Assembly: GCA_965224465.1 (NCBI GenBank) | Contig: OZ245049.1 | Coordinates: 4,920,001-4,952,000 of the forward strand | Length of the DNA stretch: 32,000 nucleotides | Direction of reading: 5' to 3' | Origin: Flavobacteriaceae bacterium | Lineage (GTDB): Bacteria; Bacteroidota; Bacteroidia; Flavobacteriales; Flavobacteriaceae | In this document: positions 966 through 8,213 of the stretch, piece after piece | How positions within the stretch are numbered: the stretch's first letter is position 1 | Layout of the letters: each line of letters begins with the position of its first letter | Translations under genes and position numbers: made by a program | Notes under the pieces: generated by a model | Databases searched by the model: none | What the model saw: the letters and a program-made list of their open reading frames with translations, nothing else | Told to the model about the DNA's origin: nothing

Positions 966-3900
966 TTATATTTTTTCTATTAGAAGAGATGATCCATTTT
1001 GTTTGGTTGTTAAGTTAGCAGCTCCGCTATATCTATAACCTCTAACGGTTAGTACATCACCTGCATTCAATGCCATAATTTTTGTCATTGTAGCAGTAGT
1101 TCTGTTGATGTATCTATTTCTGTGATAGTTCGAACTATAGGTTCCTGGTACTACAGCTCCTCCTTTTAATAAAATATATTCAGACCCTGTACGGTTGTTA
1201 GAATTGTCTGATATTGTCAAAGTAACTCTATAAGTAACTTTGTAATTTCCAGCAACTTTTGGAGAAATAGAATTGCTTGTAAGTGTATAACCACTAGCAG
1301 AAACATCACTTATTGGTTCAATGTTTCCAAAAGTAATAATAACACCAGTAGTTTCTACATCAGAAGTTCCATCACCTGTAATGGTTGTGGTGTTTGCTGC
1401 AGCATCATATATTTCTGCTACAGAAGAGGTGAAAACGGTAGTTGCTACCCAGTTTCCTGTTCCTGCTAGAAGTGTCGGATCCCAAGCTAATACCTGCCCT
1501 GCAGTTGCACTGTTTTGATTGATGTCTTTTGCAAGTATAGTAGCATCTTTTATTTTACTAGTTGTAACAGCGTCTAGTGCTAAGTCACTGTTTTCAACAG
1601 CACCTGCGGCAATGTGTCCTGTTAGGATTCCATCTGCTTTTACTTGTAGTTTTGTAGCTGCTATTTCAATGGTTGCATTATCTACGTTTACATCTACTTT
1701 ATAATTACTAGCTGTAGTACCTGCACCTGCAACTGTTGTTGCATTACCATTGGCTAAGATAGTTTCTGAACCGTCGGCTGCTGTTACTTTTAAATCATAG
1801 TTAATTCCTGTAGGTGTAACTGTAACGGAACCGTCAGCAGAAGCTACTGTTTGGATTTCGTTAGTAGCGTTAGCATCACTGTCGTCTACATTTATTGTAA
1901 TGGCAGATTGTCCAGTTATTTTTATGTTTCCTGCGGTGTTATCTGTTGATAGGATTTGAGTTTCTGTTACTGTTAAAGTTGAAGGAGCAACAAGAATCCA
2001 ATTAGTTCCGTTCCATTGCATTAGTTGTCCATTAGCTGTTCCATTTGCTATTTTGGCTAAAGTAACATTGTTGTCTGCAATATCTGAAGTTTTTACTTCA
2101 CCATCCTTAATGTTTGCAGTTTCGACAGCGTCGTTAGCAAGTTCAGCAGTAGTAATAACATCATCTGCAATGGTAAGGGTTACATCGTTAAGAGCAGCAT
2201 CTACACCACCAGTTACAGTAATATCAGTAGAAGTAATATCTCCGTCAGCAGTTAAAGTAGTAGGGTCAACTTCTAAAGAACCATCGATATTTTGTTTTAA
2301 ACCAGTACCAGCAACATCTGGATTGATTTTAGTTTTGTCAATTGCATCATCTGCTATTTTAACAGTTGTAACGTTAGCATCCTTAATGTTTGCAGTTTCG
2401 ACAGCGTCGTTAGCAAGTTCAGCAGTCGTGATAACATCATCTGCAATGGTAAGAGTTACATCGTTAAGAGCAGCATCTACACCTCCAGTTACAGTAATAT
2501 CAGTAGAAGTAATATCTCCGTCAGCAGTTAAAGTAGTAGGGTCAACTTCTAAAGAACCATCGATATTTTGTTTTAAACCAGTACCAGCAACATCTGGATT
2601 GATTTTAGTTTTGTCAATTGCATCATCTGCTATTTTAACAGTTGTAACGTTAGCATCCTTAATGTTTGCAGTTTCGACAGCGTCGTTAGCAAGTTCAGCA
2701 GTCGTGATAACATCATCTGCAATGGTAAGAGTTACATCGTTAAGAGCAGCATCTACACCTCCAGTTACAGTAATATCAGTAGAAGTAATATCTCCGTCAG
2801 CAGTTAAAGTAGTAGGGTCAACTTCTAAAGAACCATCGATATTTTGTTTTAAACCAGTACCAGCAACATCTGGATTGATTTTAGTTTTGTCAATTGCATC
2901 ATCTGCTATTTTAACAGTTGTAACGTTAGCATCCTTAATGTTTGCAGTTTCGACAGCGTCGTTAGCAAGTTCAGCAGTAGTAATAACATCATCTGCAATG
3001 GTAAGAGTTACATCGTTAAGAGCAGCATCTACACCACCAGTTACAGTAATATCAGTAGAAGTAATATCTCCGTCAGCAGTTAAAGTAGTAGGGTCAACTT
3101 CTAAAGAACCATCGATATTTTGTTTTAAACCAGTACCAGCAACATCTGGATTGATTTTAGTTTTGTCAATTGCATCATCTGCTATTTTAACAGTTGTAAC
3201 GTTAGCATCCTTAATGTTTGCAGTTTCGACAGCGTCGTTAGCAAGTTCAGCAGTAGTAATAACATCATCTGCAATGGTAAGAGTTACATCGTTAAGAGCA
3301 GCATCTACACCACCAGTTACAGTAATATCAGTAGAAGTAATATCTCCGTCAGCTGTTAAAGCAGTAGGGTCAACTTCTAAAGAACCATCGATATTTTGTT
3401 TTAAACCAGTACCAGCAACATCTGGGTTGATTTTAGTTTTGTCAATTGCATCATCTGCTATTTTAACAGTTGTAACGTTAGCATCCTTGATGTTTTCAGT
3501 TTCGACAGCGTCGTTAGCAAGTTCAGCAGTAGTAATAACATCATCTGCAATGGTAAGAGTTACATCGTTAAGAGCAGCATCTACACCTCCAGTTACAGTA
3601 ATATCAGTAGAAGTAATATCTCCGTCAGCAGTTAAAGTAGTAGGGTCAACTTCTAAAGAACCATCGATATTTTGTTTTAAACCAGTACCAGCAACATCTG
3701 GATTGATTTTAGTTTTGTCAATTGCATCATCTGCTATTTTAACAGTTGTAACGTTAGCATCCTTAATGTTTGCAGTTTCGACAGCGTCGTTAGCAAGTTC
3801 AGCAGTAGTAATAACATCATCTGCAATGGTAAGAGTTACATCGTTAAGAGCAGCATCTACACCACCAGTTACAGTAATATCAGTAGAAGTAATATCTCCG

Positions 3901-8213: not shown

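Follow-up and report, generated by a model that had tools for sequence, protein, structure and literature searches.

Alpha C and Rib of group B Streptococcus, SasG/Aap, Esp and Bap are encoded by near-identical, in-frame DNA repeats, and recombination between these repeats changes their copy number and, with it, the protein's reach or antigenicity. That a change in repeat number alters the length of a surface protein is a long-established principle. In BclA, a protein of the Bacillus anthracis/cereus exosporium with the partners ExsFA/BxpB, a strain-specific number of repeats sets the length of the filament between an N-terminal attachment region and a trimer-promoting, C1q-like head (PMC10470788). 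For Lcl, the collagen-like adhesin of Legionella pneumophila, a polymorphic number of tandem repeats is reported (PMC6460258). Here, we analyze a gene for a fibre-like protein with 21 near-identical tandem units in a marine Flavobacteriaceae bacterium (GenBank assembly GCA_965224465.1, contig OZ245049.1, positions 4,920,001 to 4,952,000), a stretch of 32,000 nucleotides that is referred to as the window in the following. We consider it likely that this array encodes, in frame, the repeat shaft of a fibre-like protein that is secreted and probably homotrimeric, and that recombination both homogenises the shaft and changes its length.

The protein shares its three-part plan with BclA, and with alpha C/Rib, SasG/Aap, Esp and Bap it has long in-frame units in common whose DNA sequences are almost the same. 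The folds of the latter are unrelated, however, and while these Gram-positive proteins are LPXTG-anchored monomeric rods, the fibre protein carries a putatively trimerising head. Two properties of recombination-prone repeat proteins are found here: the units are multiples of 3 bp, 96-100% identical and with exact tracts of up to 496 bp, and they bear the signature of recombination and concerted evolution. By analogy, the mechanism would work like that of BclA and of the Gram-positive repeat surface proteins, with the number of repeats setting the reach. Nevertheless, the fibre protein does not belong to the BclA family, as it has neither collagen repeats nor an exosporium-targeting N-terminus: its translation is free of collagen GXY runs, the shaft consists of beta-rich modules of 92 or 62 residues, and a Sec signal peptide followed by a flavobacterial domain stands in place of the exosporium-targeting motif. 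The host also differs in being a Gram-negative, non-sporulating flavobacterium. Lcl is likewise a Gram-negative tandem-repeat protein, but its repeats are collagen-like, and its fold and secretion route are unrelated.

The array lies within an intact open reading frame (ORF) on the minus strand, the only one to cover the repeats together with both of their unique flanks (Table 1). We delimited the units by anchoring on the invariant peptide DAIDKTKINPDVAGTGLKQN and numbered them from the N-terminus; in the register that begins at DAIDKTKINPD, they occupy 5,526 bp. Eighteen long units encode 92 residues each (276 bp), and three short ones (units 1, 7 and 11) encode 62 (186 bp). Tandem Repeats Finder recovers the same two periods and their sum, 462 bp, over positions 2102..7607, with 97-99% matches, 0% indels and a top score of 5215. 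Both the unit parsing and this search agree with an earlier note on the same DNA, which had counted 21 units of 276 or 186 bp at 2104-7640. Each unit is built from a 62-residue core and an optional 30-residue spacer with a strict period-5 hydrophobic pattern. What sets the short units apart from the long ones is an exact 90-bp (30-residue) segment, both junctions of which lie within the 10-nt direct repeat GCAGATGATG, a plausible site of slippage or illegitimate recombination. At the edges of the array, a diverged leading copy of the spacer precedes unit 1, and the 3' end of unit 21 is diverged, adding 12 differences. Exact repeated tracts reach 496, 494 and 459 bp, and the adjacent units at 2381-2656 and 2657-2932, which the note had picked out by eye, are indeed 100% identical.

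Among units 1-20, 15 nucleotide columns vary, and every one of them is biallelic. Eight are synonymous; the other seven fall into five non-synonymous codons and give rise to the differences I/A, A/T, ND/IN and A/E. The earlier note had named exactly these four protein-level differences and had recognised the sites as biallelic, but its count of about 10 variable positions was too low. The 17 long units other than unit 21 are on average 98.1% identical over all pairs (range 96.0-100%), and 15 distinct unit sequences occur. All four allele combinations were found in 35 of 78 pairs of variable sites (four-gamete test), and the Hudson-Kaplan minimum is four recombination events within the 276-bp unit. 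The mosaic of alleles, which the note had ascribed to recombination among units, is therefore real, and simple serial duplication does not explain it.

The alleles also show positional structure. Neighbouring units diverge less than random pairs do (1.42% vs 1.86%, permutation p=0.012), as local duplication or conversion would lead one to expect. The PTTLT (Thr) allele is found in units 16, 18, 19, 20 and 21, all of which belong to the C-terminal block of six, with unit 17 (3177..3452) as the exception within it; this matches the earlier observation of five such units at the low-coordinate end and has a probability of 3e-4 under random placement.

Similarity among the units extends to silent sites, with a pairwise proportion of synonymous differences (pS) of 0.048 and a ratio of non-synonymous to synonymous differences (pN/pS) of 0.20. 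Selection at the protein level thus cannot explain why the units are alike, and purifying selection acts on the few replacements that remain. For comparison, pS between the IDH gene in the window and those of its nearest relatives is 0.51-0.67, more than 10-fold higher, and the array, or its last homogenisation, must consequently be much younger than the split from these relatives. Together with an orthologue that has no array (see below), these values bear out the recent expansion proposed in the note and identify it as lineage-specific. A recent lineage-specific expansion with ongoing homogenisation is accordingly supported.

The same process is evident in a distant relative that is represented by two contig ends, L001 and L002, of one metagenome-assembled genome. 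It has the same N-terminal motif and the same 276-bp (92-residue) unit. Within-array DNA identity is 98.1% in the window and 95.7% in this relative, while identity between the two arrays is only 72% (68% at the protein level). Given this high identity within and low identity between arrays, the units evolve in concert; the pattern that the note had regarded as speaking against ongoing recombination, a shared unit order with diverged sequence, was looked for in L001/L002, and the opposite was seen. The C-terminal head of this relative is a different domain, and heads appear to be exchangeable between otherwise related fibres. At L002:2-1500 and at the end of L002, as well as in the proteins P0002 and P0003, the shaft modules are shared and the head is of a YIIQLT..DPGITYY..FMFTVIRLP type. 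Immediately downstream, the N-terminal leader motif recurs in a second gene of L002.

Syntenic loci in genus-level relatives were reached through IDH, which is 87%, 86% and 84% identical to its counterparts in uncultured Flavobacteriaceae and shares no more than 73% identity with those of Winogradskyella, Aureibaculum and Lacinutrix. In two of these loci, L095 and L096, the order is IDH, MscS, an ATP-grasp-like gene, a small paralogue of 290 residues and a fibre orthologue of 681 residues. This orthologue has the same signal, N-terminal motif and head (ending in NGSSITIEKL), but lacks the 92-residue array, so that orthologues differ 3.5-fold in length (681 vs 2,415 residues). Downstream of it, at L096:17925-21325, lie three tandem paralogues of 364, 379 and 393 residues, which have the N-terminal motif of the fibre, A(S/A)EGD.Y..(I)YIGL..G. 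These genes hint at a cluster organised around a single attachment domain; their counterpart region in the genome analysed here would lie beyond position 1 of the window. In the closest relative, L094, the small paralogue has a tandem array of its own, with units of 51 bp (17 residues), and the contig stops inside it; judging from these sequences, the whole locus seems prone to repeat expansion. The contigs of L001, L002 and L094 all end within such arrays, and of 12 related genome loci, 6 are no more than 400 nt away from a contig end. The exact repeats of up to 496 bp and the relatives that break inside the arrays support the hazard for short-read assembly of which the note had warned.

Modules of the same kind, with DAIDK.KINPDVAGTGL.. 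cores and period-5 spacers, are found in P0002 and P0003 (Aquimarina sp. U1-2) and in Maribacter proteins. In P0002, the unit length varies (92, 122, 132 and 162 residues). These proteins differ from the fibre protein in their N- and C-terminal domains, the latter being the 'YIIQLT..FMFTVIRLP' head, and are only 39-45% identical to it; the literature searched contains no experimental characterisation of them. More generally, homologues of the fibre are large flavobacterial proteins annotated as 'beta strand repeat-containing' or 'tail fiber domain' proteins.

Table 1. Coordinates, within the 32,000-nt window, of the fibre-like gene, its parts and other features.
Feature	Position	Strand	Basis
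Terminator-like hairpin and T-run directly past the stop codon	928..961	-	
Gene for fibre-like protein, intact ORF, 2,415 aa	966..8213	-	ORF list, translation
C-terminal head (~aa 2266-2415), predicted TNF/C1q/BclA_C-type jelly-roll	969..1418	-	model and fold match
Non-repeat distal stalk (~aa 2048-2265)	1419..2072	-	partly alignable to upstream paralogue and L096 orthologue
Array, 21 in-frame units (18 x 276 bp and 3 x 186 bp)	2073..7598	-	repeat finding, unit parsing
C-terminal six-unit block (16-21) with all five PTTLT (Thr) units	2073..3728	-	
Short unit 11, 186 bp	4833..5018	-	
Short unit 7, 186 bp	5847..6032	-	
Short unit 1, 186 bp, without the 90-bp spacer	7413..7598	-	
Diverged leading copy of the 30-aa spacer (ITNTQLANDAVLSVNIKDANVTTVKIAD), before unit 1	7599..7688	-	
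N-terminal non-repeat region (aa 21-175)	7689..8153	-	
Signal peptide, type I, without lipobox cysteine (MKKGLLFLLFILTMHLSYG, followed by Q)	8154..8213	-	read from translation
Upstream paralogue, 438 aa, other N-terminal domain, same head type	8252..9568	-	head alignment, E=3e-27
L19-Flavobacteria ribosomal protein leader upstream of rplS	15403..15430	-	Rfam, 44.8 bits, above gathering score
Antisense ORF, 1,882 aa, restricted to the array	2053..7701	+	
dnaA	22472..23899	+	

The putative signal peptide of the fibre protein was recognised from sequence features of the translation. In the N-terminal region that follows, a rare leader motif, TQTEINNI..AAEGDMYQV..IWYIGLSDGS, is combined with the module 'SGLTATNVKAALDEI', which is widespread; the region is common to L001, the second gene of L002 and the L096 orthologue. 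In an exhaustive search, residues 1-60 were matched by few representatives only, while the motif at residues 82-120 is frequent and repeated elsewhere; the N-terminal domain of the former type is confined to a few flavobacterial proteins. The motif SGLTATNVKAALDEIVANI (7850..7960, minus strand, residues 85-120) is a widespread repeat module, with 44 matches in the 5,298-residue protein P0194, and the loci L005 and L010 contain 255-bp arrays of 98% identity that are built on a similar motif.

For the C-terminal head, we obtained an AlphaFold2 model from a nine-row alignment with a predicted local distance difference test score (pLDDT) of 77.9 and a predicted template modelling score (pTM) of 0.73. 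A Foldseek search of the PDB with this model returned ExsFA/BxpB, the BclA C-terminal domain, EDA, 4-1BBL and C1QL, all with probability 1.0. The TM-scores, on the target, for the BclA C-terminal domain (1wck, 2z5w, 3twi) and ExsFA/BxpB are 0.7-0.75, at a sequence identity to the head of only ~13%; among viral models (BFVD), the matches are C1q-domain, collagen-like and tail-fibre phage proteins. Sequence homologues of the head carry the Pfam domain BclA_C (PF18573), and the head of the fibre protein itself has no Pfam match. According to the model, the head is a TNF/C1q-type jelly-roll, in which the BclA_C feature is seen at the level of the fold only. Because the jelly-rolls matched by this fold all form trimers, a homotrimer is the most likely state of the modelled protein.

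The repeat units match tail-fibre families of PHROG and have at least 277 relatives in viral contigs. In some cellular homologues, the C-terminus is formed by the Peptidase_S74 chaperone domain, which is typical of trimeric fibres. With a head of the TNF/C1q type, a fold of trimer-forming proteins, and with repeats like those of tail fibres, the label 'fibre' that the note had used is reasonable. We assume that the protein is displayed on the cell surface, where it may serve as an adhesive or spacer fibre. PDB sequence searches with two units and with the C-terminal 368 residues gave nothing meaningful. Hits to Cwp8_D2, phiJL001 Gp84_N, GNAT and RimP, which were obtained from Pfam and NCBIfam with single units and with the N- and C-terminal parts, were weak or summed over repeats and were discarded as repeat noise.

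The proposed mechanism combines these observations. From the N-terminus, the protein would consist of a signal peptide, the rare N-terminal domain as the presumed attachment end, the 21 modules, the distal stalk and the head, and the TNF/C1q (BclA_C-type) head would presumably nucleate the trimer and form the binding tip. Since the units are multiples of three and neighbours share exact tracts of up to ~500 bp, their number could change without loss of the frame. RecA-type unequal crossing-over or gene conversion would add, remove and homogenise units, and slippage at GCAGATGATG, which is present at both ends of the spacer, would turn long units into short ones. The outcome would be concerted evolution together with a shaft whose length shifts over evolutionary time, as between the orthologues of 681 and 2,415 residues. 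Judging from these orthologue lengths and from the behaviour of identical repeats, shaft length very probably varies within populations as well.

How far the array can be taken at face value depends on the assembly and on the forces that act on its length. The exact repeats of up to 496 bp exceed short reads, and the assemblies of relatives break within such arrays, which raises the question of whether copy number or unit order are artefacts and the true locus has fewer or more units. We regard this as improbable: a contig of 5.24 Mb implies a long-read or hybrid, chromosome-level assembly, the frame is uninterrupted for 7.2 kb with 0% indels, and the units comprise 15 different sequences that share biallelic sites and are structured by position, unlike what collapse or random read error would give. 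It is also rather unlikely that the array undergoes gene conversion while its copy number is fixed by selection for a certain shaft length and does not vary on population time-scales. Purifying selection on the units (pN/pS 0.20) would fit such a constraint, as would the diverged first spacer and last unit, which show that the edges of the array are stable. Yet orthologous and related genes encode proteins of 681, 2,415 and at least 3,733 residues, and the identical adjacent units and three independently placed short units are traces of recent unit-scale events. Moreover, recA+ bacteria readily recombine identical direct repeats of several hundred bp.

Two further explanations concern the nature of the protein. 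In phage tail fibres and collagen-like phage proteins, the same head fold occurs, and so does the same kind of repeat, 'xAVTxxKIxD' with a period of 5/10. Given that the strongest PHROG matches are tail-fibre families, that the repeats abound in viral contigs and that the head fold matches C1q-domain phage proteins, the gene might encode the tail fibre of a phage or tailocin, left behind by a prophage, and not a cellular surface fibre. This is very improbable, because the gene is chromosomal, lies outside any phage cluster among housekeeping neighbours (IDH, L19 with its leader, TrmD, PrmC, MscS and DnaA) at a locus that is syntenic in genus-level relatives, and encodes a Sec signal peptide, which virion proteins normally do not have; we have discarded a prophage origin on the strength of this housekeeping, syntenic context, which is free of phage genes. 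The shaft could, on the other hand, be a monomeric beta-solenoid adhesin akin to pentapeptide-repeat proteins, whose tandem A(D/N)LXX pentapeptides form a right-handed quadrilateral helix, with the head as a non-trimerising binding module. The 30-residue spacer is strictly period-5 hydrophobic, and several homologues match the pentapeptide model Pentapeptide_4 (PF13599). We give this possibility little credence, as the structural neighbours of the head are all obligate trimers, the prediction for a monomer of two units gave no confident solenoid, and the fibre protein itself has no pentapeptide match in Pfam.

Several findings weigh against our preferred reading, that of a homotrimeric surface fibre with a recombining, length-variable shaft. 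The assignment of the head rests on a fold match at 10-18% sequence identity, and the Pfam match to BclA_C is found only in the neighbouring paralogue, below the curated cut-off (E=3e-5, 24.3 bits vs a cut-off of 38). The model of two units as a monomer is poor (AlphaFold2, 11-row alignment; pLDDT 61.7, pTM 0.28), with no confident solenoid; the shaft may be an intertwined trimer or consist of three separate solenoids. As for export, the type IX secretion system (T9SS) is the usual route for large surface proteins of Bacteroidota, such as SprB; inspection of the translation and searches of Pfam and NCBIfam revealed no C-terminal sorting domain (type A or type B) of this system, no lipobox and no other recognised export or anchor signal. 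With its C-terminus predicted to form a jelly-roll head that matches no sorting domain, the fibre protein is not a recognisable T9SS substrate.

Finally, no second genome or metagenomic contig of the species was found in the collections searched, and copy-number polymorphism is thus unobserved. Even clustering at 90% leaves L19, IDH, TrmD and the two fibre proteins as singletons, and no protein in a database of 5.8 billion clusters is more than 45% identical to the fibre. In metagenomes, an exact, invariant 33-nt segment of the repeat had 0 matches, and a scan with a protein pattern gave a single match of 33%. The GTDB representatives that were scanned did not include the source genome.

Within these limits, the locus provides a clean, quantified case of concerted evolution and lineage-specific expansion in a fibre gene of a Gram-negative bacterium, and it marks a region that is demonstrably left unclosed when related genomes are assembled from short reads. 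In addition, it draws attention to a family of flavobacterial fibres whose heads are C1q/TNF-like. What is new beyond the long-known principle is this uncharacterised family, with exchangeable heads and no recognised export signal; in the literature on BclA/C1q-like proteins, PF26696/DUF5907 and tail-fibre-like flavobacterial surface proteins, we found no description or experimental characterisation of it. More speculatively, and with considerable doubt on our part, it may be an undescribed class of flavobacterial surface fibres with a BclA-like plan, in which the attachment domain is conserved, the shaft modular and the trimeric head exchangeable, with a length tuned rapidly by recombination, with no recognisable T9SS or lipoprotein signal, and with the upstream paralogue as a short partner or base. 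Marine Flavobacteriaceae live attached to particles and algae. A fibre of adjustable length, if it exists, could affect their attachment, their aggregation and their interactions with phages or grazers.

The fibre gene and the upstream paralogue are separated by 38 nt and, given this spacing, are probably co-transcribed. Over their last ~150 residues, the two proteins are ~45% identical. The N-terminal domain of the paralogue starts with SLLELESTNKVFVLTRV.., and a precomputed match to Pfam PF26696 ('PTL_trimer') exists for its L096 orthologue and for P0002. Its syntenic orthologues are located at L094:14143-15363 and L096:14788-15660. Next to the gene pair, at 9784..10821 on the minus strand, a protein of 345 residues with weak ATP-grasp (RimK-like) similarity is encoded, which adjoins the pair in L094, L095 and L096 as well; it is conceivable that it modifies the fibre proteins. 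On the other side, the ~930 bp past the fibre terminator (1..965 of the window) are AT-rich and contain no ORF of at least 60 residues, no tRNA and no Rfam match.

Opposite the array, the plus strand contains a long ORF that is probably not a gene: it ends at the edges of the array, and the unit is free of stop codons in that frame. Although pN/pS does not discriminate between the two frames (0.24 antisense vs 0.20 sense), homology, signal peptide and flanking domains are all found in the minus-strand ORF, which is therefore taken to be the coding one. The antisense ORF is most likely a by-product of the stop-free frame.

The neighbouring genes are of a chromosomal housekeeping type (ATP-grasp-like, MscS, monomeric IDH, L19, TrmD and PrmC), followed further along by genes for RibD, asparaginase, DnaA, GH92 and a sodium:solute symporter. 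Among the neighbours in the window, no gene for a phage structural protein, an integrase or lysis was found, and the flanking housekeeping block has no match in the plasmid collection. The L19 leader confirms the flavobacterial placement. GC skew on the plus strand is positive throughout the window outside the array, with DnaA 14 kb off. From this skew, the plus strand is probably the leading one, in which case the fibre gene, on the minus strand, would be transcribed head-on to replication.

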